Assembly: GCF_024521635.1 (NCBI RefSeq)
Contig: NW_026250429.1
Span: forward strand, 1 to 64,000
Direction of reading: 5' to 3'
DNA length: 64,000 nt
Origin: Tricharina praecox
Lineage: Eukaryota
Below the pieces are notes generated by a model that worked only from the letters and a program-made list of their open reading frames with translations, had not been told where the DNA came from and searched no databases. The position numbers and the translations under genes were made by a program. This document shows, piece by piece, positions 3,500-63,527 of the stretch (position 1 is the first letter of the stretch; every line of letters starts with the position of its first letter).

Positions 3500-5700
3500 T
3501 ATTGTCAACTCAGCTGAAGATCGGTGTGTTCGACGGACAAGTGTAACTGCAACGTAGGTAGGAGGGCATGCATTCCATTCGACGAACTACGGCCGACTGC
3601 CAAAGTACAGGGGAAAAATCATAAGGCGACTCATATGTATCACAAGAGAGAAAAATAAGTCCAGCCAGATTGAAAACGCGCGGGATTACTTCTATCCTGT
3701 CCCCCGAAAGGGATGAACGTAATGGGATTGAATTAACCACTCTAGTGCCTCCGGACTACGTAGAAAACAGGTGCCTCGATTCTCTGGTAGCGCCTTACGG
3801 GTGGTTGCTCAAAGAGCGAGTCACAGTACAAGCCTTAAGGCTCGAGGGCAGCGACGCGCCTCTGCAATTGAAGATCTCTCTCTCATAAGCCTCACCATCG
3901 CAGCTACGCCACTTCAATTCCGCGCACCCACAGGGTTTAGCCGCCCACCCTTCCTCTCTTTCCCTCTCCCTCCTTTATAATCCACCATCAACATCCTCTC
4001 TTTCCTTCCACTATGTCCCTACTCCACCCACAACATCCTCTTTCCACCTGCCGCTTCTTCCTACACTTCTACTCCACCATCCACTTGGCAAAGAAAGAAA
4101 CAAAAACGATTTTCTGCCACCCGCCTCAAACCCAGCCCAATCCAACAAGTCTCTTTCCTTCCCGACAGTGACCGCCCCAAATCCCCCAACGTGGGGAAAG
4201 GGAGGGGGGGTTAATCAGACTCCGATGAAGAGGACCCCGAGGACGACTCAGAGAAACTCTCTGAGTCGGCTCCGATGAAGAGGACTCTGAGGAGTAAGAG
4301 CTCTGGCTCGTTTATCCTCCCGGCGTAACCGTCACGACGGTTAGGCCATTCGTTCCTAGCGGAATGCTTTTCCGTTTCGTTTTGCGGCTCCATCGCCGCA
4401 TACGACAGATTGTCCTCCCCAGCTACATGGCTTCCGCAGGTAGGTCCCTGTCTATATAGGTACCTATTATCGATCTTCAAATAACTGATCTTATGTAGTC
4501 TTTCATCGTCCACCCGGCAGACACCCGCAACCCCAATAGTCACGCAAGACATCACCAGATCCGCTACCCAATCAGTCACACAAACGACCACCACGAGACA
4601 CACCCGCAACCAGGAACCGAAACCACAATCCACACCAAAGCCTCCGGAAGATCCTTTACCCATCTACATGGCTTCTCAAGGTAGATCTCTATCTACATCC
4701 TATCATCGAACTTCAGATCGCTAACTGTCCTCTCTAGATAACATGAAGCTGTCGGTCAACTGGCGCAAGCCGCTCCCACATCCGGCCTGCATTCAGATCT
4801 ATCCAGATCGGTTCGCAGGGCAAGTCTTCAAACCCATTCTCAAAATCTTTGGAGTGAAAAACTACGACCACATATGGTTCGATTTCCGCTTCGAGGTGCT
4901 GCGAATGTTCCGGCAACAATCGGAGGTGCTGGCCGGAATACGTGAGCTATGATGAAGACGTGGAGGAAGACATGGAGGAAGAGGAAGAGGAAGAGGTTTA
5001 GAACTGAAGGAGTTGTTATTGTTCTTGCTTTCGATTTTATCGTCGATAACTGCATCCTCAATTACTTCGTAACGTTTCCTGCTCGTCGTGAAACAATATT
5101 TATAGTATGCTCGTAGCCAGCCTGTGTTTTACATACTACAGTCCAGCGGTGTCTTGCACGACCCATGGTCCATTGGCGGAACTGCACTAAATTCGTCCAG
5201 TCCATATCGGAGGTTAGTCTTGCACGCACTACTACTGAGTTCATCAGACAGGTAGGACGGGATGGATCGCTGTTGACTGTAGCCGAGTGGCAGTAATCTA
5301 ATAAGTACATCCGAAACACCATAATGCCACATGAATCACATCGGAGAGCGCTTCGCACAGCACGGAAGAACAACGGTATTCCACCCTCCAGCAGGGATGA
5401 ACGAAGCGAGATCAGGAATGTCCCCTCGAAAATGTTCGGACAGTGTAGAACACAGGTTTCGTGGACGGTTGTTCCGTGGACTTCTTCACAGCGCGGCGCT
5501 CGTTTTTACATTTACAGCGGAAGAATCATAAGGCACCAGGAATCACATCATAGAGAGCTCAGTAGTCCCGCAAGATGGCGAACAAGACGGAATATGTACA
5601 ACACAGGTGCTGTGGACCGTGGTTCTCGAGCATGTCTTCACGGCAACTCACGAGTTGCACGAGTGACATCACATGGTATCACGGCTGCAGCTACAATTCT
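3500..5700 (+). repeat. Cassette unit U1 (conserved spacer - leader - intron-containing degenerate ORF - acidic tail - spacer)
   Basis: GCTACGCCACTTCAATTC at 3903 and ACTGCATCC tail motif at 5049. 3740-5150 aligns with 13165-14700. Spacer motifs AGGGATGAACG and GTAGAAnACAGG occur both upstream (about 3708-3770) and downstream (about 5393-5456). Confidence 0.8.
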
Positions 5701-5704
5701 CTAT

Positions 5705-6545
5705 GAAAATCGAAGGAAATGAGATCGCAGATGGGTGGGCCAAGCAAGCATCGGAGAACGTCGACGGCGATGGAGTAAGATGGCTCCGGTAAGGTAGCGG
5801 ATATGGACGCAGGCGTGCCGTTCCCCTTCCGGTCTCACTGGCACAACTTAAGAGGCGGATTAGCGATGAAAAGTGGAGAGAGGCGCATCAGTGGTCACTG
5901 ACCCGCATCAAAAACCAGCGGTACCGTACAAGAAGTGGATAAAGGAGGGATGATGATCATTACTGGTGCTGCAACAGGTCTACCAAGCAATCACGCGACC
6001 ACCTATTCAAAACCGCTCGCGGTTGAGAAGTCAACAGAAAGTCTTGTGGGTAAAGGTCGGGAAGGAGACGGAGAGATGGAAAGAGAGGTGGTCGATAGCG
6101 GAGCTGTTCGCCGACGAGCGCAGCAGCGAGGCAATCGTACAGTTTCTAGGAACGTCGGATGTGGGGAGGAAAGCTCCACCAGACCTGAAGGATGAGGATG
6201 AGGAGGAGGGAAGCATCCCATCGGGGGCAGAGCAAGAGTGCCCAGGAGGGTGCTGTGTCTGCGGCCGGTGCGAGGAAGTAGGAGATGAGGATACGCGGTG
6301 ATATCGTCTTGGAGCGGAAAGGCGGAAGACGGCGGAGAGAAGCAAGGGGGCAGCAGGAGGAGCGGGCATGTAGGCCCATCCCGGTCTTTACTGTTAATCT
6401 ACTTTCCACTTTTTGCTTATGTCGGGCCGAGGCGGATGGGCAGGGAAGATGAGGCGCCGCGTCGGACTGGCCAGGGCTGGCAGGAAACGGAGGTCGTTGG
6501 TTCGCCATAATCTAGATAGGTTGCATGCGAAATAAACATCAGGAA
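5705..6545 (+). mobile_element. 5'-truncated non-LTR retrotransposon (LINE, RNase H-containing), 3'-UTR type A
   Basis: IEGNEIADGWAKQA (end of RNase H), decayed zinc knuckle WCCNRSTKQSRDHLFK, C-terminus QQKVLWVKVGKETERWKERWSIAELFADERSSEAIVQFLGTSDVGR. The 3' end TCTAGATAGGTTGCATGCGAAATAAA is shared with other copies. Confidence 0.85.
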
Positions 6546-7559: not shown

Positions 7560-7730
7560 CTGCTCGTCCTGCTCGTCCTGCTCGTCCTGCTCGTCCTGCT
7601 CGTCCTGCTCGTCCTGCTCGTCCTGCTCGTCCTGCTCGTCCTGCTCGTCCTGCTCGTCCTGCTCGTCCTGCTCGTCCTGCTCGTCCTGCTCGTCCTGCTC
7701 GTCCTGCTCGTCCTGCTCGTCCTGCTCGTC
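7560..7730. repeat. Perfect 9-bp tandem array (CTGCTCGTC)x19
   Basis: Read directly: 171 bp with no mismatches. It explains the LLV/RAG/RTS repeat ORFs. Confidence 0.97.
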
Positions 7731-8874
7731 CTACCGCCGAATGAGCATCCTTGCCTAGCTCCGCACTCAATTAATCGCTCCGCTCCTCGCCCAACTCCTC
7801 CCCAGCTCCTCGCGCAGCTCCGGTTTCGCTGCCAGGGACTCACCACAGGGTTCGCCTTGGAGATGCTTCTTTCGCTGCCATGGAAGCAGAACTGGATTCG
7901 TCCAAGAAGTGCCCTCTCGCTGCGTTGGACTGGATTCGCCTAAGTGTTTTCCTCACACTGCCATGGATGCACTACTGGATTCGCTGCCAGGGCTTTGTAC
8001 TAGATTGGTTGCTAGGGCCTCTTTACTGGATTCACTGCCATGGCCTGTGTACTGGTTTCGCTGCCATAGACTCAGTACTGGCCGCCTCAAGCTGCAACGG
8101 AGACAGCACTTGACATATTTTTCCCCAAAGCTCTGTTTGTCTCCGGCGAGCCTAGATAGCATGTGTACATAGAGGACCTACTGCTGCAGCAAGAAAGAGA
8201 ATAATGAAGTCTTTTCATCGTCATACTCTACAATTCTGAACAGCGCTTTACCCGCCTAAGAAATGCCCCTCTCGCTACTGGCGAGCGGGGCCGGGAATGA
8301 ACATATCGGTAAAGACGAGGAGTAGGAAGTGGAAGTGGAAGAGCTGGACGACAAGGAACATGAGGAACATGAGGTCTAGAATCAATTGGAAGACGACGGT
8401 GACTATGCGTGGCGAATTTTGTGGGGTTCTTTAGGTTTATCAGCCCTCGCCACAGCACTTGCCACAGCACTAGCGACAGCACTAGCCATCAGTCTGACCT
8501 CACCCTCACGCTCGCACGCCTCTGGGGAAAATGATGATATATAATACCAGTGGCAGCGCAACCTTGATTGCTTTCTCTAACTTCCAACATCAGTCATCCC
8601 CACACCTGGTACTCCCCCAATCGACACATCGAACTATACCCACGCATCGATCATGCCGGCTCCCAACGGACTGCCAATCCGTAGGCAGCGCAGAAGATTG
8701 AGACGGCCGCCCCAAGAAACAGATACGACCACCACCTCGCCATCTTTCCCCGCCAGCTATCTCGGCCGTCCTGGCGGGCAACAGACCGTGTCCGCCTATC
8801 AACGAGGAAAATCGCAAGAAGATCCTCAAAGGAACGAACGCTACTGACACTGCTGCTCACCCTCCTTTCCAGTG

Positions 8875-9425: not shown

Positions 9426-9949
9426 GCGAGGCCGGTGAAGGCGGGGAGGGCGCAGGGGATATGGAAGAGAGTTCTGTATAATAGTAATTACAATATTTAT
9501 CTATCCGAGCAAGACCAGGTCTAGGTGCTACATAATACGAGCACAGTAAACGTTATACGTCTTTTTGTACTCGGGTAGCAGATTTCAGACCCGGACAGCT
9601 ATCAATCTAAGCACCGTACCTATTCAGTCAAAGTCTCCCGTTGTGCGCGGTGCATGGCGAGCTGCGATCACTCAAGGACTGCTATTAATCCAGCATCGTG
9701 CCAATCCAGTCGGAGTGTTACGCTGTGTGCACCACCAGGCTAGCTGGGGCCAGGCCTGGCGAGCTGCGGTCCGGCATGCAGAACTTCGGTCCGGCACGGA
9801 CATCTGTGGTCACATGGCATCGTGCCTATCCAACCATTATGTCACGCCATGTGCAGTTCACGTAGTACAAACCTTTCCCCGCGCCCATCGGAGTTTTGGT
9901 TTTCCTGATGCATGCTATCACGGCAGCAGCTACAATCTTCTTGGCTCTG

Positions 9950-10155
9950 TGAAAACGGAAGAAAATGTGATGGCAGATGGGTGGGCCAACCAGGCAGCGG
10001 AAGACCTAGACGGCTATGGAGTAGAATGGCTCCGGCACGGTAGCGGATATGGACGTCGGCGTGACATGCCCCTTCCGGTCTCAGTGGCACATCTCATGAG
10101 CCTGATTCGCGATGAAAAGTGGAGAGAGGCGCATCGGTGGTCACTGACCCACAGA
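9950..10155 (+). mobile_element. LINE RNase H fragment
   Basis: EENVMADGWANQAAEDLDGYGVEWLR...DEKWREAHRWSLTH; aligns with 5705-5905. Confidence 0.8.
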
Positions 10156-13100: not shown

Positions 13101-14311
13101 AGGAAGAATTGGAGAAGGACGAAGGCGTCTCGTACGATGACAACAAACCCGAAGAATCAACTGCTCTAATCCCTCCTGATTACGTAGAACACAGGTGCCT
13201 CCATTCTCGGGCAGCAGCTTACAGGTAGTTGCTCACAGAGCGAGTCACAACGCAAGCCTCAGCAATTGAAGATCTCCCTCTCACAATCCTCAGTAACATG
13301 GCTACGCCAATCCAATTCCGCGCAACGCGTAGGGTTTCACGCGCACGGTTTCGCCGCCCCTATTCCTCTCTTTCCCCCTCTTTCCTTTATAACCCACTAT
13401 TAACATCCTCTCTTTCCCTCCACTCTCCTCTCAATCCACCACCAACATCCTCTTCCCATCTTCCGATTCTTCCTACACTTCTACTCCACCATCCACTTCG
13501 TCTCTTTCCCTCCCGAACGGGACCGCCCCAAATCTCCCCACGTGGGAGGTGAGCGGCGGGGAGATTAATCAGACTCCGATGAAGAGGACTCAGAGAACGA
13601 CTCAGAGAAACTCTCTGAGTCGGCTGCAATGAAGATTACTGTCAGGAGTAAGAGCTCCTGCTCGTTGAACCCGCCGGCCTAACCGTTGCGACGGTTAGGC
13701 CATTCCTTCCTGGCGGAATCTTTTCCGTTTCGTTTTGCGGCTCCATCGCCACATGCGACAGATCGCGCCCCCCAACGATATGGTTTCTGCAGGTAGGTCC
13801 CTATCTATCTATCTATTATCTAACTTCAAATAACAGTTTGTTCAAGACGCCGGAATCGAAGCATAGTAGCCCAAATGGGGCCATCTATCATCCACACTGA
13901 TCACCAAACAACCACCCGAACTGTTCTTCAGACAACCACTACGGCAGGCACCCGCAACCACGATCCGTAACCACGATCCACACTAAAGCCTCCGGAAGAT
14001 CCTTTACGCTTCGATATGGCTTCTCAAGGTAGATCTCTATCTACTTACCTATCATCCAACTTCAAATAACTAATTGCCCTTTCTAGATACCATGAAGCTG
14101 TCGCTGAACAGGCGCAAGCCGCGCCCACATCCGGCCGGCATCCCGATCTATCCAGATAGGACGAGGAGGCCAGTCTTCGCACTGATTCTCCAAATCTTTG
14201 GAGTGAAAAATTACGACCAGATCTGGTTTGATTTCCGCTTCGAGGTGCTGCGAATGTTCCGGCAACAACCGGAGGTGCTGGCCGGAATACGAGGGCTACG
14301 ATGAAGACGTG

Positions 14312-14512
14312 AAGATGAACAGACTGCATCTGCACGTGACCGACTCGCAGTTGTGGCCCCTCGAGATCCCGTCTATGCCGGAGCTCGCCGAGAAGGGTGC
14401 TTACGCCCCCGGATTCACGTACTCGCCCGAGGATCTGCAGCAGATTCTGGACTACGCCGAGGCGAGAGGTATCCAGGTCATCGTCGAGATCGATATGCCT
14501 GGACACAGCACG
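14312..14512 (+). pseudogene. Captured fragment of a GH20 beta-N-acetylhexosaminidase gene
   Basis: KMNRLHLHVTDSQLWPLEIPSMPELAEKGAYAPGFTYSPEDLQQILDYAEARGIQVIVEIDMPGHS contains the GH20 catalytic-domain motifs KxNxxHxHxxDxQ and RGIxVIxEIDMPGH. It is absent from paralog U1. Confidence 0.93.
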
Positions 14513-14775
14513 TGTTGCAGGAAGACGTGGGGAATGAAGGAGAGGGTTAGAGCTGAAGGAGTTGTTATTGTTTTTGCTTTCAATTTCATCGCGGATAACT
14601 GCATCCCCAATGACTGCGTAACCTTTCGTGCTTATCGTGACAAAATATTTATAGTAGAGTCGTAGCCGGCCAGTATTTTACATAGTACAGTGCAGCCTAC
14701 TCTTTCCCCACCCATGAACGGGATTGTACTTCAGTCACCCAGTTCGCCCGGCTTGAGGTTCCGGCAACGGCGGCG

Positions 14776-15002
14776 TGTCAGGAAAAGTGGTATCGCGAGA
14801 TGGTATATTGAGTATCAGACACGAAAAAAAGAAAGGTATATATTCGGGAAGGCTCGGGGATGCCCCGGATAGAGGCGCCACGCCGCCGCTCGGCACCTCC
14901 GTGTGAGAACGGATAACGGAAGTATCTCGATATAGCGAGTGATCGTTCATGACCCGGTCCTCGGAAGTGACGCGGTACACGGAAGTTCGTGAGATTATGA
15001 CA
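14776..15002. mobile_element. Solo LTR, family A (227 bp)
   Basis: TGTCA...TGACA ends and perfect 5-bp TSD CGGCG. Homologous to 55378-55581, and in inverted orientation to 31373-32556 and 41995-42341. Confidence 0.93.
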
Positions 15003-15419
15003 CGGCGCGATTGGGATCACCGAGTGATCGACTGTGGAGCGCCGGCAGCGTCGGCGGCGGCAGATATCGGGGTTCATGGACTCGATACCAAGAGCCTAGT
15101 CGCTATCGAAGTTCTCAGTGTCTGTATACCGCACTGTCTTTCACATAGCCATCTATCAATATATTCACATTCGTATTAATAGTCCGCAGCAGTGTGCTGC
15201 TAAATCTGGGCTACCGGTAAGGTTGAAAGAAACGGAGAGCGGTCGGGTGTAGTCGATTGACAATAGTGGTACAAGCATAGCGGAAAAACAATAAGGCGAC
15301 ATGAATCACATCAGAAACAGGTCCGTCAAGATCAATGACGCCCAGACGTAGTAGAATTATCCACCCCACAACAGATAAAGGCAGGACTGGACTAATCTAT
15401 AAATACTGCCCAGAATGGA

Positions 15420-16040: not shown

Positions 16041-17852
16041 GGGCCTTATTAAAAATGCTACAGCGATTCAATCTAAAGCACCCCATAGGTTTCACTGGTA
16101 TGGTGTCGCTTTATTTGTTCCTTTCCCTCCCTCCCCTTTCTTCCTACACTCGACCTTCTTCTCCTTCTCTCCCCCTTCTTCCTACTCCATCAGCAACCTC
16201 ATTTCTATCCTTCATCATCCTTACCACAATGCTACTTCAGCATCAACTTCCTTTCTAATTCCCCCCCCCTTCCACTTACTCCTACCTACTGAACCGGCTC
16301 CGGGAAATGGCCATGCGCAATCCCGTTCACCGGGAGTGCCTGGTGGCAACGATTGGAGGAAGGGAGTCGTGCACAGAATTCCCCCTGACCCAATTCCCGT
16401 TCTTCTCTCCCCCTCAACACTCGTACGATATCCTCCCACCGCTCAACAAGCCGAAACGACGAACGATCCGCACCTACCATCATAAATCACACATCAACAG
16501 CAGGTATTGCCGCCGCTACCATCGCCGGCCTCATGATCCAGCTACCAACCTGGGCTTCCAGGGCTACAGGGACCGCGCGCGGGCCGTTTGATTATTCGGT
16601 TCCGAATTCGTGTCGCGGTGGAACCGCACGATCGGAAACGGCAAATTAAAGATTTATCGGCCTCAGCATTCGGATAAACATTTTGAGGTGATGTCGCCGG
16701 CCGTTGAATAATAAGTTTTCCATTTATTGATATCAACTTTTCTTTAAGTTTTAAAGTTGTAGCTGTGGCAGTGTTGTGTCCGGACGCGAGGATGATTTCT
16801 ACGACGAAGGTGATGACCAGTGGTATTGTGCCTATCTCTTGGACTTGTATGAGGTTTCAGGCAGCCAGCTGATCATGGGATAACACTCATCATGCGCCTG
16901 GACCACGACAACAGAGAAGGACCAATGGCACTGGAAGGTCCGTATACTTCGAAGCATACACCCTCCCGCCGATTTGGCGAGAGAATTTGTACGAAGCAAA
17001 GTTATGACCTCTACGACCGCCCAAAACTGGAAGTGCACAAGAGCCACTGCCGTGGCAACAGAAGAAAGGGTTGGACTGCCCAGGGTCCTGGTGGGCTTCT
17101 GGCACAAGTCGCGTCCCGCTAGTGTGACGAGGTGGAGGAAGATAAGATGGAAGATGAGGATGCGTCCTCCTCCGAACAATCCTCCGGGGAGCACTCGAAC
17201 GGAAAGGGCGTCGAAGAAGAAGACCCGCCAGGCGACTGCTCGAACCAACTAGCAGCCAATCCACCCACGGCTGCTCAGGATTGCTCGGACGAAGATGATG
17301 CCGAAGTAGAAGACTCGTCAGACGACTGTTCGATCGAAGAAAACTCGCACGAACGTGACTCAGCCGCCGTCGAAGAAGTCAAAGCCGAACGATACCCCCC
17401 GCCAGGAGCCATCTACGGGTACCACGAAGACCCGAACTAGGAAGACGAGGAGGATGATGATGATGATGAGGAGGAGGCGGAGGAGGCGGAGGAGGATTAG
17501 CGCTGAGGGATCTATTTTTGTTTTGTTTTGAATTTTATTTTTATCACAGACAACTGCATCCTAAATGACGTTGTATCCCTTCGAGCTCGGCGCGACGCAA
17601 TATTTATAGTAGTCTCTAAGCCCGCCAGTATTCTAAATCGTGAAGTCCAGCCCAGTCTTTCCCCATTCATCGAAGGGACTCAGCTATATTCCTTCAGTGC
17701 ATTGTTGCAAATCTCGGGCGGAGCGATGGAACGACGGAACTTCAGTGGTTGTCACTCGACTCGTGCAGAATATTGTTGGTAATACGCGTGCGTATTGGGA
17801 ATCCTGTTTATTCTCATCCTTGCTTCTTCTGCTTCTGCTTCTGTCTGTTATG

Positions 17853-19390
17853 TACAGCGGTCGAAAGTGGACAAATAGCCAAACATATGTATTGTGCATT
17901 TGACATTTTGCTTTTGACGTTTTGCTACGCGCCTTCTTGCAACCCGCCGTTTTGCAACATAGCGCTGGTCGACTCACCCCACAACACAACAGAGCGCCCA
18001 CCGAGACAAAAAGAGAGAGATAAAGAGAGAGAAACAGGGAAGGCATAAGGGAGAGAAACAGAGGGCGGAAAAGAGGGCAGAAAAAGATGGCGAAAAATGC
18101 GAGAGGACGGTAGGTGACAGCGAGGAGAGGAGTTTGGTGGGGTATAGATGAGTTAGGGTTTAGATGTCGCAGTAGGCCCCACGCGATAAAACAGTCATCA
18201 CCACTACTATACCATCACTATCACTGCTAGATTTCTCCCTGCGGATAAATAGGTAGACCGGAATATGGTTATTGAGATATGGCGATCCCCTCCTCACAAG
18301 GGTGTCCCTCGCAACGAAAATGCAGACGAATGGCCGAAGCTGGCCGCAGAGGCTCCAGCAGCCGATAATCTGGCAGCGGGTGGGAAAACAGAGGGCTCGG
18401 GGAAAGGATCGCTTCAGGATCCCCGACCTCTTTGTTGATAACCGCCGCAGCGGCTCAATTCTGGAGTTCGTAGCAGCAACAGATGCAGGGACGGGAGGCG
18501 GCGGGGCGGATTAGGAACTCCTGGCGGCGAAGAGGTGAGTCTACAGAGCGGACGAGTTCTTGGAGTGTGCACCGAGCCGACGGAGCGACTGTAATGAGCG
18601 AGCGAGCCAGTTGAAGGAGCGGGCAGCAAGTCGATAGGGTGGGCGTTGTCTCCTCCTGGTGATCCGGCTAACCCCTCGCATTATGACTGGGATCGGGATC
18701 ATGGTATATCACTCGGTATATCAATGTGACGATATCACTACTCCTGGGCTCCTTCCGGCTGAGATGAGGCTTAAAACAATACCCCTTAAAGAAGCACTCG
18801 AGGTCAACACGGGTTGAAACATATCCAGCGATTTGTGAAACGAAAAACCAGTCTTCACCAGTTATTAAGGAAACTAAGATGTTTAAACCTAAAAAGCGCA
18901 AATCCAACACCAATGTGATGCACATCGTCCAAACTTGGTATGCAATAACTTCCACTCTCTGTCTGCAGTTTTACCTTGAGTTTGTTGCTCTGGCGAGGAA
19001 AATTTCTAGACAAAGAGCCTCGGCGGCATGGTGGCGGAGGTAGCGGTGGAGGCAGTGGTGGTTATGGTGTGGTGATAGCACTGTTTTTTGTTTATCACCT
19101 GGGGCCTAGTTTCTGTGATCTAAACCCTAACCCATCTCCACTCCTCCTCGCTGTCACCTACCGTTCTCTCGCAATTTTTGCTCTCTTTTTCTCTCCCTTA
19201 TGCTTTCTGTTTCCTCTCTCTTTTACTCTCTCTTTTTCTATCTCTTTTTCTCTCGGTGGGTGCTCTGTTTTGGTGCGCGGTGAGGCCACCAGCGCTGTGT
19301 TGCAACCCGGTGAGTTGCAAGACGGGGCGTAGCAAAATGTCAAATGCACAATACACATACTTGGCTATTTATCCACTTTCGACCGCCGTA
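17853..19390. mobile_element. Non-autonomous DNA transposon with about 385-bp terminal inverted repeats
   Basis: Left end TACAGCGGTCGAAAGTGGACAAATAGCCAA, right end TTGGCTATTTATCCACTTTCGACCGCCGTA. Arms about 17853-18238 and 18997-19390; flanked by GTTATG/GTTATT. No transposase recognised. Confidence 0.9.
18290..18660 (+). mobile_element. LINE C-terminal fragment inside the TIR element
   Basis: QQPIIWQRVGKQRARGKDRFRIPDLFVDNRRSGSILEFVAATDAG matches the LINE C-terminus seen elsewhere in the window. Confidence 0.75.
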
Positions 19391-19814: not shown

Positions 19815-21345
19815 ACGAGCCTCAGTAACACTGCTACGGCAATTCAATGCAAAACACCGCGTTGATTTCTCTAGCGCAATGTCGTCTTACCCATTTCTGG
19901 TCCTCCCTACCCGGCCCCCTTCTTGCTACACCGCTACACGGCTACTCCACCATGAACCTCCTCTCGCTCCCTTTCCATTCTTACTACTCCATCATCAATT
20001 TCGTCTGAACACTATCATCATTCTTGCTGCATTGCTACTACAGCATCAACTTCCTCTCCCTCCCTCGTCCTTCTTCCTACTCCATCACCAGCCTCATCTC
20101 CCTCCATCATCATTCTTCCTACAGTGCTACTTCAGCATCAACTTCCTTTCTCTGTCTCCCCCTTCACCTTCCTGCCCCTCCCTCCGTCTTGTTCCTCCTC
20201 AACCACCAACCTCATGTTCCTGCATCCTCCTTCTTGCTACAATGCTACTCCATCATCATCCTTCTTTCTCTTCCGCCCTTCGACGTACTCCTACCGACCG
20301 ATCCGCACCTGCGACCACATCTCACACATTAACAGAAAGTATGGCCGCCGTTACCATCGCCAACATCATGATCCAGCTACTAATATGGGCTTCCAGGGCT
20401 ACACACGCCACCGGTTAGTCAATCGAGGATAACCACTATGACCAGCCAGGAACTGGGGCTTCCTATTTTCGTTAGCAACGCGGTAGGAGACGCGGAATCG
20501 ACTCCATTCATGACATATGGCACGATGCTGCAAATCGAATCCATACAAGTTTATCCGCTGGGTCGTAGCCATATCTGGACGGTCGGCGTATCCAAGTTCA
20601 AGATCAAGAAGTTGGGTTACCGGGATGATTACCTGATCGCTAAAGTGGAACGAGTCGATGATTTCCCTCTTGCCGACGAGGAAGCATTCGAACAACCCAA
20701 CAGCCACTTACGTGTGAACAGAAGACGGTCCCCGCTGGCGGAGAACGTCATCAATCTGCCACAGGTCGCGTCCCACGAGGATAACAAGGTGGAGGAAGAT
20801 AGGATGGAAGATGATGGTGCGTCCTCCTCTGAACAATCCTCCGGGGAATACTCGGACGAAGATTGCGGCGAAGAAGAAGACTCGCCAGGCGACTTCGCAC
20901 GAACATGGCACGTACGACGATGACTCGGATTAGGAAGACGAGGAGGATGATGAGGAGGAGCAGGTGGCGGATTTGTGCTAAGGGAGCTGTTCTTTGTTTT
21001 GTTTTGTTTTTGAATTTTGTTTTTGTCGCAGATAACTGCATCCTACTCGTCAGACGACTACTCAGACTAGGAAGACCAGGAGGATGGCAAGCAGGAGGAG
21101 CGGTGCTGAGGGAGCTGTTTTTTTTGAATTTTGAATTTTATTTTCATTGCAAACGACTGCATCCCCAATGACATAGTATCCCTTCGAGCTCGTCGCGACA
21201 CAATATGTGTTAGTCTCGTAGCCTGCCATTATACGTGATCGTCAATTCAAGTCCAGTCTTTCCCGATTCAGCCAAGGGACTCGACCAGATTCCTCCAGTC
21301 CATCCTGAGCTGTGTGTTGTGCGGACTGCCTATGTATCTTGTCAG
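19815..21345 (+). repeat. Cassette unit U4 (LON-domain cargo, duplicated tail)
   Basis: GCTACGGCAATTCAATGC at 19833; intron GTATGG...TACTAAT...TTCCAG|GGCTAC; ACTGCATCC twice (21035, 21156). Head-to-tail with U3 and U5. Confidence 0.87.
20438..20700 (+). pseudogene. Captured fragment of a LON-peptidase substrate-binding domain (CrgA/LONRF-type RING-LON protein)
   Basis: LPIFV...PFMTYGTMLQIESIQVYPLGRSHIWTVGVSKFKIKKLGYRDDYLIAKVERVDDFPLADEEAFE resembles the fungal LON_substr_bdg segment (FMxYGTxL..PDGRS..TVGVSRF..DGY..KVERVDD..LAEEE). The FEPRYRLM segment is missing. Confidence 0.85.
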
Positions 21346-36009: not shown

Positions 36010-36422
36010 AAATCCTATGGTTTCTAGGAACGACGGATGTGGGGAGGAAAGCTCCACCAGACCTGGAGGAGGAGGATGAGGAGGAGGCAAGCATCGCATC
36101 GAAGGCAGACCAAGAGTGCTCAGCAGGGTACTGCCTCTGCGCCCGATGCGAGAAAGTAGGAGATGAAGATACGAGGCGGGGGAGAGACGAGGGGGCAGCA
36201 GGAGGAGCTTGTATGTGGGCCCATACCGGTCTTTACTGTCAGTCTACTTTTGGCTTGGGGCGGCCCGAGGCAGATGGAGAGGGAAAATGGGGCGCCGCAT
36301 CGGGCGAGCCGGTACCGGGGCTTTCACCTCGACTGGCCAGGGCGAGCAGGCAACGAAGTTCGTTGGTTCGCCATAGTCTAGATAGGCTGGATGCGAAATA
36401 AAATAGGAAGATCTCTCTCTCT
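36010..36422 (+). mobile_element. 5'-truncated LINE type A
   Basis: ILWFLGTTDVGRKAPPDLEEEDEEE; aligns with 6135-6540; ends GCGAAATAAATAGGAAGATCTCTCTCT. Confidence 0.85.
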
Positions 36423-37059
36423 TCTCAGAGTTGTCAATCGTGCTCAATCGTACTCGGGATGGAGGTGCTTGGGATGGAGGTGTGTGGGATGAAGGTCCTC
36501 GAGGTAGAGGTGCTCGACTCGCGGGTGATAGAGGCAGGCCCAAGGAGGTGGGCTGTCGAGGGTCAATTGTACTTGGCAGGTTGCAGACGTGCAGTGATAG
36601 TGACAGGTTGTAGTGTCGGCGGTGGCAGAGGAGACGGAGGTGACGGAGGTGGGCTGTCGAGGGCTTTCGAGGGTCAATTGCACTCGCCAGGTTGCAGACT
36701 TGCAGTGGCGGTGGTGACCCAGCACACTCGATCGCGGGTGATATGCGCGAGGCTTGCTTCTCGAAATTTTCAATCATGCTCGGGATGGAGATGCTCGACT
36801 CACGAGAGGTGGTGGACGTGCTCGACTCATGGGCGACGGAGGTGGGCTGTCGAGGAGGTGGGCTGTCGAGAGTGACGGAGGTGGGCTGTCGAAGTTCAAT
36901 TGCACTTAGCAGGTTGTAGTCGTTGTAGTAGTGGGGTGGGGGAGGTGGTGGGTGGTGGGGTGGTCGGCCTAACATCACCCTCGACCACGAGCCATAGGTT
37001 GTGTTAGTCGAACGAGGGTGTTATGCACGAGGCTTGCTTCTCACAGTTGCCGGCGCCAC

Positions 37060-37199: not shown

Positions 37200-38545
37200 T
37201 TGCGTCTTCGTAAGCCTCCATGTTGTGAGGAGAGGTATTCATCGTGCTTTCACCGCGTGGTGAGTTGGTGGGTGCGGCCGGCTCTACGCCTTACGCACGG
37301 AGTTACAATAAGTCGGGAAAGACTGGGCAGGAATGTGCTATCTGGAGCACTGGCCCACTGGGTTGCTAACAGCATATTATAAAGATTGTGTCACGGCGAG
37401 CGCGAAAGGTTACAAAACCATTGAGGATGCAGTTACCTGCGATACAATTGAAAGAAACAAAGGCACAGGTCCGACCGTAACCTGATCACCCTCCTCCCCT
37501 TCCCGCCTATCCTCCTCCTCCTCTTCCTCTCGAGGATCCATCTCTCCCATCTCTTCCTCGCCACCTCTTGAACCGTGGACACGCTTACTGTGGGAATGAA
37601 CAGGACTGAATGGCTTCATTGGAAGAACCGGGATATCGTCCACGTCCAGGTGATCAAACTTCTCCTCGCGGGCAATGAGACGGCAACTATCGTAAAGCTG
37701 GTCGTCGTCGTGCTTGGTGCGGTTACTGCCGGGCTTCACACAATGTTGCAGGACGTAATCGCATATGTTGCAGTAGAACGTCGAGTACAACTCGGCAGCC
37801 GGCGAGTTGAAGATATCGTTTAGATCAACTTCAGTGCCGATGCACTTGAAGATTTTTTTCATTGTCGCCAAATCGAGCCGCGCGTAGAAGTATTGACAGA
37901 CTGCGGTGGGATATAGAGTCTCCAGAACCATTCTGTCCTTCTTCCAGACCTCGGTCACCTTTGTATCCGTCAGCAGCAGTAGTACCGGCGACCCAGAAGA
38001 GCGAACTCACATGCTTGACCGACACCTTCAGGACATCGCATCGCCATTGCCTTCCCCATAGCTGCTCGACACGCCTGATCGCGACATCATAGTGGCCCTT
38101 GGCACTGTGGTGCCTGTGGAGCTGGGCGTACACCTGACCGGCAGGTGCAGACGAGTAAACGCTTGCACTCCCCAGGCGCCTTGAGGGTGTCAATGGAGTG
38201 AAAAAATCAGGGATAAGGCACTGGAAGTACCAACCAGGTCCACAAGGTCAGAGCTTACCATCGGATGGATGGCGGAAGAGAAGCCGTGTGAACGGTCAAG
38301 TTGTGGTGGGTTATATCGTTTTTAGTTGCGTCGAGCGGTGGGAGGTTATCGTCTATTGACGTGGGGTAATTGAGAGAGAAAGGGTAAAAGCAGAAGTAGA
38401 TGATGGAGTAGGCAGAAAATAGAGGGAGAGAGAGGAAGGTGACGATGCTTTAGAAAGGACAGAGAGGGAGAGAGAGGAAGGGGGATCGGCGAAAACCTGC
38501 GGGGAACACCCTAAACAGTGCGTGAATTGAATTGCCGTAGCGTCG
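37200..38545 (-). repeat. Cassette unit U6 (inverted)
   Basis: The minus strand has GCTACGGCAATTCAATTC (ending at 38541), a pyrimidine-rich leader, an acidic tail and ACTGCATCCTCAAT (37420-37433), followed by spacer sequence. Confidence 0.8.
37410..38270 (-). CDS. Hypothetical spliced protein, cargo of U6
   Basis: Open frames 37831-38193 and 37410-37958 can be joined by a GTGAGT...GCTGAC...AAG intron (about 37959-38010); a further GTAAGC donor lies at about 38258. No family recognised. Confidence 0.4.
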
Positions 38546-49254: not shown

Positions 49255-51494
49255 CTACTGCTCATCAAACTTTGCCGTGACTACGCCATAGCTAATTCCC
49301 TCATGCAGCATCTCAAACTTAATCACCTCATCCACAATCTTCATCGTCACGTCATAGTCGATAATATAGTACTGCTTCCCATCCGAACCCATCCGGACAT
49401 CGAAACTCGAGCACGGTACACTGGAAAGGTCGGAGTACATATAGCAGACCGTCGTGATCGCACTCGGATCTTGGAAATTGTAGTCCGGCGGAGTATCAAG
49501 ATCGCAGGAGACGAGGAAGTCCTCGAATACAAGTCTAGGTGAGAAACCGTTGCTCGGAACAGGGACCTTGCGTGTGTAGAGTTGGGTGACGAGGGCGGTC
49601 TGTGCAACAACCTCGTTGCGCCGGATGTACCAAGTGAGGTTACCTCCGACCTTCCAGAAACTGTGCCCCGGATCCCACTCCTTCCGTGCCTTCACGTCTG
49701 CCGCCATCGTGCCGGCGTACTGTTTGTGTGATAGGTACCCGTAACTCCGGCGGGAGAGGCGCTTGTGAACCATCGAGCCCTCGAGCCCTCGCTGGAGGGC
49801 TCCGCGGGCGATGGCTGACTGCGCGTTGACTGGCTGTAGAACCGGGATTTTTCCCCTACCCCCGAACCGCCCTTGCTTCAGTTTTTCGAGGAGGTATTGG
49901 GAGCAACCGGAACCGCCCACGAGGAGAATGGCCTACTCACGCCCCGTCACATAGGCGTCTCGAGGATGCATTTGATCGAGCTGAGCGGGCGAGAAACCGG
50001 GCGTCCGCCGAGCACTCGCTGCTCAACCGTACAAGCCACAATCAAGAAGGGGTAGGGGAGGGCCTACTGCGACGTGTTCCCCCTGATCTTGGACACCATT
50101 AACCTGCTGTTCGACCAGCTTCACTATGCGGTCGATAATTGGATTGAAGATTTGCTGCACGGCAGCCCTTCAAGGTGTCAGTAATCCCCGTGCAAGACCA
50201 CTTGGGGTGGAAGGTAGTTCGTACGTAGTCATGAAGTGGAAACCGTCTTCGACGCTGAGGGCGGGGTTGTCGGCTACACCTGGAACAGTGACCTCGAGCA
50301 TGTCTTCGTTGACATCATTCCCAAACTTGAGCTTCACCTTCTCTTCCCAGGTGCGCATCATTTCGGCTTTCGATCGGGGCTGCGAAGTGCATCGTTAGTG
50401 GAGTTTGGTGCGAGAGAACAAGAAGACGTACCTTCATCTTATCGATTACCTGGTCTCCGAGTAGACGAAGCATGTATTGTTCGAACCTCTCATCCAAGAA
50501 GACGGATCCACAGAGATCACCGGTACCACACACGCTCTCATCGGTGCGCAACGGATTCAACTCGGTAATCTTGTAGGAGATCACGTCAACTGTACTGGTT
50601 AGCTATCGTACGCCTCCATACGTCCGAGGGGATCCGACTCACCTGTTCCGCCACCCGCATCACAAATGATGAACGTATCCCCCAGTTTGAGATTATTCGG
50701 CTGCACAACCTTCAGCGTATACGCAGCAGCGGCCTCCGGCTCAGACACGAAGTTAAAATTGACTCGATGGCTTCCGTACCCGGCCCTCTCGGCCGCCTGA
50801 ATCATGAGGTTCCTGGCACTATCGCTCCAAATGGCGGGGACGGTGAGGATGTAGGTTATTTTACTGCTCTCAACCCATCCGAACTCGTACGACTGCTTGA
50901 TGGATGCCACGGCGAGCTCGCGAACGGCCTGAAGGAAGTCTGTGACAACCTGGACCGGAGTGAGGCTGAGATCGTTTAGTTAACCTGCTGTCTCCTGCGC
51001 GGGCGTAATAGTCAGTGCCGTAAAGCTGTGACTGCCGACGGAACTCGGCGAGCAATTGCCGGCGGGTCCCGGATTCGCCAGTTGCAGCTGGTGAAAGGTA
51101 GTTTCTAGTCCCGGTGCGCCGGCGCGGCGCGAAGCCGAGTTATTCATCTGCAAGAGGAGTTTGAACCATTGCATTGGCTTTGGGGCGGGGCGGATGTGCC
51201 TTGGCAGCGTCTCGTAGCCCCAGCATTTCGCGCGGGTCGCGGGGTTGGTGTAGTAAACGACGCTCGGGACTTGGTCGGCGCTGCTGCTGCCGGTGCTGCT
51301 GTGCGGCCAGGTTTGGACAAGCTTCACTTCGCCCGCCGAGGAGGAATGGGCAAAGGCGACCGACGTGAATCTATAGAGCGTGAGCGCGAGACGTGGACAG
51401 CCAATCAACACTCGCAGCCGGCCAAGGTGGGGTGGGGAGCGCACGTGGTGCCAAAGTCCACTCCGACGCAGAAGCCGCTGTTGCGGTGGGACAT
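49255..51494 (-). CDS. Fungal HSPA12-like Hsp70 (actin-like ATPase), multi-exon
   Basis: MSHRNSGFCVGVDFGTT|FTSVAFA; WFKLLL; ILTVPAIWSD; VSEPEAAA; ICDAGGGT|VDVISY; CGSVFLDERF; LLVGGSGCSQYL; AIARGA; RRSYG. Canonical introns separate the blocks. Confidence 0.93.
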
Positions 51495-55867: not shown

Positions 55868-56824
55868 CTAAATCGGCTCCTTAGTGGGATCCCACGCAAC
55901 AGGCTCGTATTTTCCGGTCTGCAAAGTTTTGACCTCTTCGTCCGTCAGCTCGAAGTCGAACACATCGGCATTCTCCCTAATCCTCTCTTCGTGCACTGAT
56001 TTCGGCAGCGGCGTCCACCCCATCTGCAAGCTCCACCTGATCAACACCTGTGCCGAGGTCTTCCCATGTTTTTCCGCCAACCCCATCAACAGCGGATCGT
56101 CCATTCTCGTTGCCCTGACAACGGGCGAGTACGCCTGCACTGCCACCCCCTCTCGCGCGCACCAATCAACAATATCCGTCCGATCGAGCCACGGATGGAG
56201 CTCCCACTGGCCGACACTGAGCACGCCTCTATCCTGCTCACTCTGCTTTTCGCGCCATGCCTTCAGCTCGTCAAGATGCTGCACGCCATAGTTGGAGACG
56301 CCCAAACTCCTGATCTTGCCCTCCTTCTGGGCTTCGACCATGGCGCGCCACTGGCCGATCCGGTCCTCGGGGGTCCCGTACGGCGCGTGGATCAGGTACA
56401 GGTCGATATAGCCCTCTAGCTCGGCGTTCTCGGCGATGACGCCGTCGATCGACGCGGCAGTGCTCGCGTAGCCCCGCGTGCGCGGCGGAAGCTTCGTCGT
56501 GAAGAAGAGCTCGCTGCGGCTGAGGCTGGAGGCGGAGATCGCGAGCGTGCACGGCCGCTCGTTCCGGTAGGCGGTCGCGGAGTCGATGTGCCGGTACCCG
56601 GTGCGCAGGGCGAAGGCGACGATCGATTGGCAGGTGTTCGCGGGGCTGGCGGGAGGTTAGCGGAATCGTCTCGGGGAGTGGCGAGGGCGGCGGGGGAGCG
56701 GGGTCAACGTTTGGTAAACGCCCAGGCCGAGGCGTGGCATGCTGTGGCCACTGAGGAGACGGACGGTCGAGGTTATGGTCAGGCTTTGTGGCATTGCTGT
56801 TGCTGCGTCTGTGAGGTTGGGCAT
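55868..56824 (-). CDS. Aldo-keto reductase (AKR5/2,5-DKG reductase-like), one intron
   Basis: MPRLGLGVYQT|P...GYRHIDSATAYRNE...LFFTTKL...YIDLYLIHAPY...IRSLGVSNY...LPKSVHEERIRENADVFDFEL; the catalytic D/Y/K/H tetrad is present. The start may be 56794. Confidence 0.95.
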
Positions 56825-57708: not shown

Positions 57709-58740
57709 TTAGGCATACGGCCGGAGGAACGCACACTCGAGGAGATCAGCGAACAGCTGCTGTTCGTCTATGTAATCCTCCGCATTTTTCCTTGGTGGCA
57801 GTTTGCGCCGTCGACGGCGGTCTCGAACCCCTTGATCATACTGTACATGATGTTGCTCGAGACTATATAGCAGCGAGACTTTTCGTCGTAGAGGTTCAGC
57901 CCACTGAGGTTCGCTTCGATATTCTGTCTAGTTTCGACGATGTATTGCTCGCGCGCTTCGGTAGGTGTAAGGTCTTCGTCGGTATCTAACATATTACGAA
58001 TGTGCTGGTTGGCTTTGGATCGAACGATGAAAACGGGAACGTCGAACTCGCGGCAGTTCGCAAGAATTTCGGCATCGATCTCCGTGAAACGCTGTGAAAA
58101 AAAGTTTAGAATTGAGTGGTGCAGCGCGGCGCGGGTAGCTTTACGGTATCGTATACCAGAATAATGAAGTCAAAGATGAACAGTCCTTGCGTGATGAAGT
58201 ACTTCCCCTGGGGTACGCCGGCAGTGCCTGCACCCGGGATATCGTACCATACAAATAGCTCGTATGGCATCCCCGGGCGACGATCGGAGTACCGTGTGAC
58301 CTCAGAAGTTGTTTCAACGATCCCCACCGGAGCTGTCCCCGGACTCTTCGCCTTAATGCCTCGAAAGGCGTTGATCAGTGAACTCTTCCCCGATCCAGCT
58401 GCAACGCAGATGACAAAATGAAAGCGATCGGTTCGATACTGTAGCTTGATTTTGGTGTCTTCGACATCTTACGCGACAACCTCGTCACCTGGCTTTAAGC
58501 CTTCGGGTTGTCGGTGGCAGGATTTCGCTTCGCCGATTCGCCGTGTGTCTTTGACTTCTGTGGGGCGGGGTCTGTCTTCGCCGACTCGCTGTCGGTCTTG
58601 TAGGTCCTCATGAACGGATTTTCTTGATCCGGGGGAGCTACGAAGCTACGAAAGATGGCCATCAAAACGTTGTCTGTGAGAACGAATGGGAACAGGAGAA
58701 TGCGACCGGGTGCCGTATCACGGTGCAGGTTTCCTATATT
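57709..58740 (-). pseudogene. Interferon-inducible GTPase (IIGP/IRG)-like gene, disabled
   Basis: LQYRTDRFHFVICVAAGSGKSSLINAFRG..APVGIVETT..WYDIPGAGT..YFITQGLFIFDFII|RFTEID..FIVRSKAN..YIVSS. In-frame TAA at about 58469, first P-loop Gly reads Val, and a frameshift precedes the terminal YIDEQQLFADLLECA. Confidence 0.85.
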
Positions 58741-60194: not shown

Positions 60195-63100
60195 GCACCT
60201 ATGGCGGGCATATTCAAGACTGAAAAGGTGCAGGGTGTGAACACACACCCTGGACCTAATCAGATCCTAATCAGCAAAGCCGCGCCCCACTCACATTTTA
60301 CTGTGCAGTACTGATAGATAATACAGAGTACTGAGCAGTACCTCTGACTTCCTGCTGCAAGGCAACCGTACTGTCTTATACCAGACACACAGTAGGGGCG
60401 GCTGGGGCGGCTGGGGCGGCTGGGACGGGCAGCAAGCTGGGGTTTGTACAGGGCCGTGATTGTAAGTAATGATCAGTACCGAGCGGTACCCCTATCGCCA
60501 TATCGCCAGGCACAGTATTGATGGGTACTGCCTGCGGCCGAGGCGGGCAGGAAGCTGAGGCTGGTACAGGGCGGTAATTGCCAGTAATGTTGAGTACCAA
60601 CCAACACCGCTATCGCCGCACCGCCGGGTGCAGTAATGACGAGTACTACCTGCGGCCGGGGCGGACAGGAAGCAGGGGATGATATAGATCTGCAATCGTC
60701 AATAATGCTCAGAAATGCTCAGTACCGAGCAGTACCAAGCAGTACCGCTATCGACGCACCACCGGTTGCAGTACTGGTGGGTACTGAATGCGGCTGGGCC
60801 GAGCAGGAAGATTGCAATGGTATAGATCTGTATCCATCGGTACTGCTCAGTACTTACTGGTACCGCTATCGCCGCACCGCTGAGAGCAGTACTGGTAGGT
60901 ACAGAATGCGGCCAGAGCGGGCAGGAAGCTGTGGGTGGTATAGGTCCGTAACCATCCGCACTGCTCGGTACTGACTGGTACTGCTATCACCACATTCCAG
61001 GACACAATACTGGTGAGTATAGGCCTGACCCTGAACTGTTACATACAGGTTGTGAGCATACTTCACCACCATTGCAGATACATCAGCTTAGTCAATATTG
61101 TCCGCCGGGAATGCAATATCCCGCCTTTCATGTTGGGAGGTGCTGCATTTGGAAAGAATATGATATCTACATGCAGCTTTCCATGTCCAGCGCTGAAAAT
61201 GATTGAAGTTTCCCGTCTCCAGCCATGACTACTCAGTATTTCGAGAGCAGCATTACAAGATACCCGGCCTTAGGAGGGTTCATCAGTTCTCAACCGGTTT
61301 TTTATGTTGAAATATCCGGTGAAGACTGGTACACATCAGTATCGGACTATACTTTACAGCATCCACCAACCAATCTTTATCCGTGTGGAGAGCACAATCT
61401 ATCTCGCACTCTCAGTCCTGGTAGGATGCGTCTCAGAAGTTGGTAGATGGTAGTTGTACCATTCCCAAAGCTCATATGAAAGTCTTGAGGCCATCACGCA
61501 AGTCTAGTTGGGGCTTCGAGATAATGGCCCGTATATCACCTACTTTGAATATACGATGAAGGTAAGTTGATGCCAAATATCCACCAGCAGAGAATGCTGC
61601 CTTCAAGACAGCACACGTGAACTAAATACCCCGTGTAAAACGTTGCTACGATCAGAGCACAACTTCGCTTCAAGTTGCTGCTCACGGTTAGAAGCTGTAC
61701 GCGCAGGTAAGATCCACAGTCGGGCATGTTTGACTGCACTGCTTGCTACTAATCAGTACTAAGCATCACACCGCGTTACCACCCACGAATGACCTTGCTC
61801 CATCTGGCCGCCGGAGGCAACCACCTGTACACGCGAGGCCACTGCGGACCCACATAGTGATAGCAGTATTACACGATGACATTACCCCTCCATATTCAGC
61901 AGTACTGCTGATTGCTGTACCGCTCATAGTGATATACTTCCCGCCTCCGATACAGCCAGCAGGGCTGTCAACCGTCCGTCCAGACTACAGTTCACTAGTG
62001 GACTATAGTCCCGTCCCGTCCCGTCTCGTCCCGGGAAGGCTTTCCAGAGGACTGATTGATTCCGTCCGGAGGATGAAATGCCCGGATACCCGCCAGGTAC
62101 CTGTAGGTACCTGATAGCACTAGCGTGCTATGCTGACTACTAGTTTGCGGAGTAGTATAGCGCGGTGGCTACCAACAGAATTTTTAGCCTTGCGAAGAAT
62201 TTTCGGCGTCGTCAAACAATCGAGCTCAGGGGATCGACACTGCTGGAAGTAGGAACGGGGATGGTGTGAAAGTTCCATATCGTGAGAGACGCTGCGAAAT
62301 GGAGCCGCACAGCCGCACAGCCGCACAGCCGCACAGCCACACATCCGCACACCTGCGCCACTGTGTGGCGCCACGCTGTGTGCATTATCCTAGTGTCGGA
62401 GTCAATTCCGGGCCCTGTAGGGTATCCGTCCTCATTTCTCCAGCCCGGAAGACTGTAGTCATTGGTCTCCTCAGCCCGACTAATTCCTTCCCGGGCCGGG
62501 CAACCTCAAAGACGGACGGGACGGACGGTTGACAGCTAGGACAGCCAGGACAGGGCCGTACTGGGCCTGCCGATACGGTGATAGCGGTACTGCTTAATAC
62601 TGCCGAGCACTCACCCTTCCGGAGTTTTACCGGTCACGATGTCCTGCCAACCGCGGTAACAGTCAGTACCACTCAGTACAGGGTCCGACGATGCGGCGAT
62701 AGCGGTAGCGCTCTGTACCGATCGGTACTGACCGTTCTGGAGCTGTACCGCCCATAGTATTATGTCTGCCGCCGCCACAGTCAGTACGGGTCAGTACTTG
62801 GCCCGCCGATGCGACGATAGCAGTACTGCCTACTACTGCTCAGTTCTGACCGTTCCGGAGCTGAACCGGCCAACATATCCTGCCATCTGCGGAAACAGTC
62901 AGTACGGGTCAGTACTGGGCCCGGCGATGCGGCGATAGCGGTACCGCTCGGTACTGGACATTACTGATCATTACTGGCGGTTGCGGAAGTATACCATCCC
63001 AAGGTGCGTGCCCGGCCCAGCCGCATGCAGTACTGGTGAGTACTGCTCCCAGCAATGCGGCGATAGCGGTACCGCTCGGTACTGAACACTACTGACGATG

Positions 63101-63527
63101 GCAGACCTATACCTCCCCCAGTTTGCTGGCCGCCCTGGCCGCCCTGGCCGCATGTGGTACTGGTCAGTACTGCTCCCGGAAATGCGGCTATAGCAGTACT
63201 GCCTATTACTGCTCAGTTCTGACCGTTCCGGCCCGGCAATCCGGCGATAGCGGTACTGCTGGGTACGGAGCATTACCGATCATTACTGAAGATTGCAGAC
63301 CTATGCCATCCAATCTGCCTGTCAGCCCCAGCCGCATGCAGTACTGGTTAGTACCGCTCCCGGCGATTCGGCGACAGTGGTACCTCTTGGCACTGACCAT
63401 TACTGATCAGTACTGCACAGTATATTTTGAGCGGGCGCGGCTTTGCTGATTAGGACCTAATTTGGTCCAGTGTGCGTGTTTCGCACCCCGCATCTTTTCA
63501 GGTCTTGAATACGCCCGCCATAGGTGC
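60195..63527. mobile_element. Foldback-type element: long inverted arms made of 118-bp GTAC-rich tandem subrepeats
   Basis: The outer about 120 bp is inverted (GCACCTATGGCGGGCATATTCAAGAC... vs ...GTCTTGAATACGCCCGCCATAGGTGC). Anchor CTATC at 60492/60610/60748/60866/60984; its complement GATAG at 62580/62698/62816/62934/63062/63246. Confidence 0.88.
61960..62540. mobile_element. hAT-type MITE (581 bp) nested in the foldback element
   Basis: TIR CAGGGCTGTCAACCGTCCGTCC vs GGACGGACGGTTGACAGCTAGG; perfect 8-bp TSD ACAGCCAG; internal (GCACAGCC)n. Confidence 0.9.

Follow-up and report, generated by a model that had tools for sequence, protein, structure and literature searches.

The window analysed here, i.e., the first 64 kb of contig C25 in the 38.4-Mb assembly of the soil fungus Tricharina praecox, consists largely of diverged repeats over the 64 kb examined. 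Two of these repeat units are paralogues on the forward strand: U2 (13154..14716), in which a head, a mosaic body, an acidic run and a conserved tail follow each other, and U1 (3730..5167), which is empty at a site (4962/4964) where U2 is filled. The two units were aligned in three blocks with 73-80% identity and with a gap from approximately 14314 to 14516 of U2. At this site, a single G (4963) in U1 lies opposite 207 bp (14312-14518) of U2, in agreement with the approximately 207 extra bp that an earlier note on this DNA had described for U2.

The extra sequence contains a 67-codon piece of a GH20 catalytic domain (14312..14513, forward strand). Its translation has no stop codon and matches positions 30-108 of the 348 positions of PF00728 (E 2.5e-27), and with a GC3 of 0.81 it is the uninterrupted, GC3-rich GH20 segment that the note had recognised. 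The source of the piece is exon 2 of a GH20 hexosaminidase gene (G000:C21:481181-481382(-)). Besides the window, this 202-bp stretch was the only match in a search of the genome; 193 of the 202 bases are identical (96%), with nine differences and no gap, and the donor span is free of introns. The donor gene is intact and has four exons as judged by eye, and the copied stretch represents the middle of its 1.2-kb exon 2, which is open over 398 codons. Among named proteins, those most similar to the donor came from Wilcoxina, Pyronema and Geopyxis, in keeping with a Pyronemataceae-like fungus, and one other, distant GH20 family member was identified (contig C33). The suggested search for a donor thus ended at a single intact gene. 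Whether the piece spans an exon junction had been raised as a way to tell an RNA from a DNA template; it lies wholly inside exon 2 and spans no junction, and since no intron position is covered, the kind of template is not readable from the GH20 piece. Considering that U1 and U2 differ by approximately 20% and the piece and its donor by 4.5%, the piece was gained by U2 after the duplication, with the gene as the giver and the repeat as the recipient. The GH20-bearing form is single-copy, and therefore this form has not spread.

Both joints were examined at the level of single bases. The left flank (14300..14311, forward strand) is identical to U1 4951-4962. A GAAGA microhomology had been proposed at the start of the insert; this could not be upheld, as the donor has CAAGA there. 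Together, the left flank and the two bases that follow in the empty site contain a 6-mer that also occurs in the donor immediately before the visible joint; with a 4-base loss, this 6-mer is a possible priming microhomology. Because 67 of the 1154 positions in donor exon 2 have such a 6-mer nearby (a chance background of 5.8%), the reconstruction is a suggestion only. At the right end, the donor sequence may extend slightly further, interrupted by two small losses: allowing for a 2-base loss, four of the five junction bases (14514..14518, forward strand) agree with what follows in the donor, and these five bases may be sloppily copied donor sequence rather than untemplated filler. The marks of the joints, one lost target base and five joint bases, are read against an empty site taken from an 80%-identical paralogue. 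Neither a target-site duplication (TSD) nor poly-A was found at the two joints of the GH20 insert, i.e., neither the TSD of at least 5 bp nor the poly-A tail that characterise a class 1 TSIP or a LINE retrocopy. The flanking 9-mers were considered as a TSD and rejected, since they form a near-tandem (one mismatch) already in the empty U1.

The joints are real, as they are bridged in contigs of four public runs, one of which carries another allele. In run X1, contigs extend across the left joint (14239-14404) and the right joint (14422-14576) without a single difference, and contigs of run X3 and of run X5 (from a second study; 3 differences) bridge the right joint. A contig of run X2 covers 13731-14805, including the whole insert, with 11 differences (10 displayed) and an 8-base insertion; it represents an approximately 1%-different allele that has the donor base at 14416. 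Runs X1 and X3 may derive from the very clone that was assembled. The donor gene was not seen among the X2 contigs compared, an absence that carries no weight. No joint skipping the insert was listed for the four runs, whose contigs show presence and not absence.

Six of the nine differences between the GH20 piece and its donor are silent, and silent sites make up 26-28% of all sites. For polarisation we used two outgroup contigs (L010 and L011; 89% DNA identity) obtained by a protein-based scan of metagenome contigs; a degenerate DNA pattern scan of metagenome contigs gave no match. Four changes (14352, 14407, 14416 and 14508; three replacement and one silent) were assigned to the insert branch and four (14329, 14452, 14476 and 14503; all silent) to the donor branch, the calls at 14329 and 14503 being those of the nearest outgroups only, with variation among farther ones; position 14374 was left unpolarised. 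The TTG codon at 14352 had been guessed to derive from TCG by a CpG transition, and TCG is indeed present in the donor and in the two closest outgroup contigs. The change at 14416 is absent from the X2 allele. The three-to-one ratio of replacement to silent changes on the insert branch and the entirely silent donor branch imply that the insert drifts in a neutral-looking manner and that the donor gene is conserved. The donor branch tended to be longer than expected, with 4 of 8 polarised changes compared with 21-22% expected if the capture was from the direct ancestor of today's donor allele (P 0.06-0.08). Although an open frame runs from an ATG at 14315 to 14665, the start of the piece lies 8 bases past the unit's own stop codon (14302-14304) and in a different frame, and hence the piece is not fused with the unit's own frame.

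The host repeat family has a common layout of conserved head, variable body, GA-rich acidic run and conserved tail. We found approximately 30 dispersed and arrayed copies on five contigs (20 by tail search and more by local searches), which have the head and tail in common and unrelated interiors. The head (13301..13420, forward strand) contains a conserved motif, a TATA-like word (13386-13392) and then a CT-rich stretch, and appears promoter-like. The tail (14519..14716, forward strand; 20 genome-search matches) has no sharp common end: in 24 aligned tails the similarity fades over approximately 140 bp and then splits into subfamilies, and as the ends of the element are not sharp, TSDs around the unit could not be placed. 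No common CTRR end was present in these 24 tails, and the Helitron signature of a 5' TC and a 3' hairpin with CTRR was not recognised. In U2, inverted or direct repeats between head and tail were limited to chance matches of 8-16 bases, with no terminal inverted repeats of the Pack-MULE/Pack-TYPE kind. A structured RNA or ribozyme in the tail was also considered and rejected, as Rfam gave 0 matches for the window and three loci, and there was no covarying structure in 13 tails, which have one 4-pair hairpin that lacks covariation.

No Pfam match to a transposase or helicase was found among 150 window ORFs or 222 unit ORFs. The former are 150 of the 159 window ORFs of at least 105 aa (three in a 9-bp tandem array and the last six were omitted), and the latter 222 of the 235 unit ORFs of at least 55 aa, the other 13 being covered by the window scan. 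Only 2 of the 222 unit ORFs matched a Pfam family, and most unit interiors are unexplained. The family looks like recombining, duplicated blocks. No RNA dataset was among the listed public holders of the sequence, and no published report of this repeat family was found in a literature search that was thin on subscription journals.

Several other elements were observed in and around the window. A 228-bp multi-copy element with short inverted ends (14773-15003; 93% identity to copies on C44, C28, C26 and C1), which looks like a young MITE-like repeat, is located 260 bp downstream of the insert, and a 1.5-kb element with long inverted ends (84% to C24:47-1640) occupies 17853-19390. One sister unit has an AT-rich segment of approximately 190 bp (16590-16790) that is missing from two others and is possibly another patch; its donor was not found. 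Three high-copy pieces of the window (5705-6536, 9911-10153 and 36011-36428), one with a copy approximately 4 kb from the GH20 donor on C21, presumably resemble LINE 3' ends. In addition, we noted two mutually inverted arrays of a repeat of approximately 118 bp (60416-61012 and 62541-63435), a 9-bp tandem array (7560-7735) that is also present on C9, and Pfam matches to a partial HSP70 (50602-50979(-)), an aldo/keto reductase (55871-56656(-)) and an IIGP-type GTPase (58109-58468(-)), which are genes or fragments.

Pieces of host genes are not restricted to U2, as we recognised them in 6 of the 31 unit stretches examined. A sister unit carries a 246-bp piece (20449..20694, forward strand) of the LON substrate-binding domain of a RING/LON gene, which is 89% and 88% identical to copies in other repeats on C8 and 85% identical to the intact gene (C32, C18). 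Being nearer to the repeat copies on C8 than to the gene, this piece indicates that pieces also move second-hand. A second repeat family contains LON/RING pieces of various lengths with stops or frameshifts (L032, L033 and L036; G000:C8 at approximately 335 kb and 406-410 kb). The LON/RING gene region itself is 100% identical over 3245 bp between G000:C32:315443-318687 (L034) and C18:754082-757326 (L035), one of which is near a contig end; this reflects either a recent duplication or an assembly overlap. C-terminal pieces of 2-oxoglutarate dehydrogenase (OGDH) are present in three units, namely an inverted sister unit in the window (38063..38228, reverse strand; 74% to the gene on C1), one on C51 and one on C10. 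The copy on C51 has blocks that match the donor locus up to approximately 1 kb beyond the stop codon; that contig also contains, at approximately 20-57 kb, arrayed family units, many of which follow a 19-bp minisatellite and several of which carry OGDH 3'-end pieces. Pieces of an SDR gene (56 bp, 91%) and of GTP cyclohydrolase II (169 bp, 93%) were found in one unit at C25:89150-90120, in one open 151-codon frame with a proline-rich linker (L045:5594-6046 (-)).

The body of U1 and U2 is itself partly gene-derived. A piece at 13997..14282 (forward strand) is 77% identical to G000:C39:1428004-1428288 (hereafter the C39-like piece) and keeps a 58-bp GT..AG intron-like stretch (14029-14086), while its reading frame (14095-14304) ends 8 bases before the GH20 piece. 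The GH20, LON and OGDH pieces, in contrast, cover no donor intron position. All six kinds of gene-derived piece are sense to the head-to-tail direction of their unit (two-sided P 0.03); when the OGDH and C39-like pieces are counted as backbone, P is 0.125 for the four clear insertions.

The differences between pieces and donors showed a further pattern. In the three youngest pieces, 6/9 (GH20), 9/11 and 5/5 differences are silent, and the pooled 20 of 25 exceed the 43-53% expected for these pieces (P 1.5e-4 to 5e-3, depending on the silent fraction assumed), with the division into young and old drawn post hoc; for a neutral copy compared with a conserved donor, approximately 41-44% would be expected. 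The GH20 piece alone is not significant in this respect (P 0.11-0.16 unpolarised and 0.06-0.08 polarised). For the LON piece, 23/36 and 27/39 differences are silent, and in the older OGDH and C39-like pieces the silent share (42-54%; P 0.14-0.65) is within expectation. There is no DNA outgroup for the GTP cyclohydrolase II, SDR and LON pieces, and therefore their silent excess is unpolarised. The plainest reading of these sequence data would be that capture drew on alleles that already differed from those now carried, through deep polymorphism, introgression or lost paralogues. As divergence that precedes capture is silent and weighs most in young captures, it would give an excess in the young pieces. 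Alternatives are a slower mutation rate in the repeats and selection on chimeric frames, the latter being opposed by the polarised GH20 data.

The earlier note had inferred templated capture of a host gene piece, and the single, intact donor with 96% identity, the empty paralogue and the bridged junctions are all in line with it. The most probable explanation, at roughly two chances in three, is one copy-and-paste templated insertion, class-2-like, at a DNA break in U2. A presumably double-strand break would have occurred in the GA-rich acidic run after the divergence of U1 and U2, and approximately 200 bases would have been copied from the GH20 gene, probably from a DNA template, either by synthesis primed from an end at a putative short microhomology or by joining in a loose fragment, and a few bases would have been lost at each joint. 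Afterwards the donor stayed intact and the patch drifted neutrally, and the family would have received such patches repeatedly, some of which (LON, OGDH) would be spread by later duplication. This explanation is favoured by the 96% identity to a single, open and intact donor, as opposed to the 73-80% identity between U1 and U2, and DNA-level copying is favoured for the C39-like piece by its intron-like stretch and for the OGDH copy on C51 by the blocks past the stop codon. On the other hand, the GH20 piece, lying in one exon, is by itself compatible with an RNA template, and its microhomology is imperfect, with the 5.8% chance background given above. Random patching of breaks does not predict six of six pieces in sense orientation, and simple self-templating fails to explain the long donor branch and the silent excess unless diverged donor haplotypes are involved.

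The sense orientation would be expected if capture took place at the RNA level, where the reverse transcriptase of a LINE or LTR element switched from unit RNA to GH20 mRNA and back, or a cDNA patch of GH20 mRNA was used, and the product replaced the resident stretch. The TATA-like word and CT-rich leader of the heads would fit this, as would LINE-like remnants that apparently lie nearby, such as the multi-copy 5705-6536 piece, which is putatively RNase H-like. Template-switch chimeras are known from Magnaporthe (PMC2104539), and cDNA patching has been put forward as the origin of class 2 TSIPs (PMC5110952). However, none of the pieces crosses an exon junction (nor does any of them cover a donor intron position), the intron-like stretch is retained in the C39-like piece, the insert has no poly-A or TSD, and the unit lacks a sharp 3' end, so that we regard an RNA-level origin as rather unlikely. 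A non-autonomous transposon of the Pack-type or Helitron-like kind that captures genes during transposition would account for the approximately 30 copies with common heads and tails and unrelated interiors, as well as for host pieces in 6 of 31 unit stretches; it is highly improbable in view of the chance-level head-tail repeats of U2, the fading tails that share no CTRR end, the missing transposase or helicase match and the single-copy GH20 form. Retention of the piece by selection as part of a translated chimeric frame would draw on the silent excess across pieces, the 151-codon SDR and GTP cyclohydrolase II frame, a LON piece in frame with the acidic run and the frame from 14315 to 14665. 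It has hardly any plausibility for the GH20 piece, whose branch shows the three-to-one pattern of neutral drift with the silent changes on the donor branch, which stands behind the unit's stop in another frame and shifts the acidic frame downstream, and whose 67 codons represent a minor section of the profile (30-108 of 348). The chance of a misassembly, or of a GH20 pseudogene decaying in place, is practically nil: nothing was found in favour of either, the junctions are bridged in four runs including a different allele, the flanks align to U1 and not to GH20, no additional GH20 sequence was found near the piece, and the piece carries nine differences from its donor.

Break repair by templated insertion remains our preferred reading of the GH20 event. 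For the family as a whole, a more far-reaching idea, which we consider clearly unlikely and speculative, is that it acts as a transcribed, end-less 'collector' of sense pieces of housekeeping genes, whose templates often came from a haplotype that had diverged, or from a sibling species, with which a cell was shared as a hybrid, as a heterokaryon or after a failed fusion. If this were true, the silent excess, including the 4 silent sites at which the GH20 piece retains the outgroup state, would document, like a fossil, past repair with non-self nucleic acid.

The note had further suggested that the piece could bring about silencing or methylation of the donor gene, a suggestion that our results do not support, as neither CpG content nor RIP indices reveal a mutational footprint. 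The copied stretch of the donor has 22 CpG compared with 25 in the outgroup, and one CpG transition compared with 1-6 in five neighbouring 201-bp stretches. Observed/expected CpG is 0.94-0.99 in the window, unit and gene, where RIP indices are flat and no RIP signature was detected. Shorter linked repeats are able to trigger RIP in Neurospora; the GH20 piece and its donor, however, are on different contigs. A transcript started at the head would contain the piece in sense orientation, and such transcription alone is predicted to yield no double-stranded RNA. The smallest target of MIP/RIP is given as approximately 400-600 bp in PMC4165359. The 202 bp of the piece fall short of a repeat of that length or longer with at least 80% identity, and CpG or CpA transitions over the shared stretch have left no footprint. 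Thus, donor silencing by the piece finds no support in these comparisons.

The GH20 insertion is most likely an ordinary, neutral repair scar, a known kind of event and probably without function. It nevertheless offers a natural case from a filamentous fungus that is clean and can be dated, and for which the donor, an empty paralogue and a second allele are known. The collecting family, the sense bias and the silent excess raise the finding modestly above routine: here is a family without transposon ends that holds pieces of at least five genes in one orientation, the young ones looking as if they came from differing alleles. If the pattern holds genome-wide, such scraps would preserve lost alleles and could date past introgression.

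Comparison with known systems places the insertion as follows. LINE retrocopy, Helitron cargo and Pack-TIR cargo were excluded by the missing TSD and poly-A, CTRR ends and terminal inverted repeats, respectively. Like the HELPO Helitrons of Pleurotus, for which filler-DNA repair is among the capture models named (PMC4289320), and like plant Pack-TYPE elements, the family has common ends with differing host-gene pieces inside and no TSD at the piece, but it lacks TC...hairpin-CTRR ends, terminal inverted repeats, any sharp common end and a recognisable transposase, and the GH20 form is not amplified. The LINE template-switch chimeras of Magnaporthe (PMC2104539) likewise fuse unrelated cellular pieces, all sense in the present case, in one unit; here, however, there is no fused LINE 3' part and no flanking direct repeats, and the piece is internal to a pre-existing unit. 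Closer are the distant templated insertions at breaks in yeast dna2, rad27 and RPA mutants (PMC11724301), which are copy-and-paste events with a median of 187 bp in dna2 mutants, a size near that of our piece, and with 0-20 nt of microhomology, short like the putative one in our case; the present insertion is natural and inherited rather than induced, its donor is an ordinary coding exon, and the pieces of its family all have one orientation. For class 2 templated insertions (TSIPs), an RNA template has been proposed, in the form of cDNA patches (PMC5110952), the template being putatively DNA in the present case. They are polymorphic, whereas no empty U2 allele was seen in four runs, and the present case is fungal and lies inside a repeat family with several such pieces. 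With these class 2 insertions (PMC5110952) the GH20 piece has in common that it is a short copy of a distant locus whose donor stays intact, with no TSD and no poly-A, and with putative small losses and short matches at the joints.
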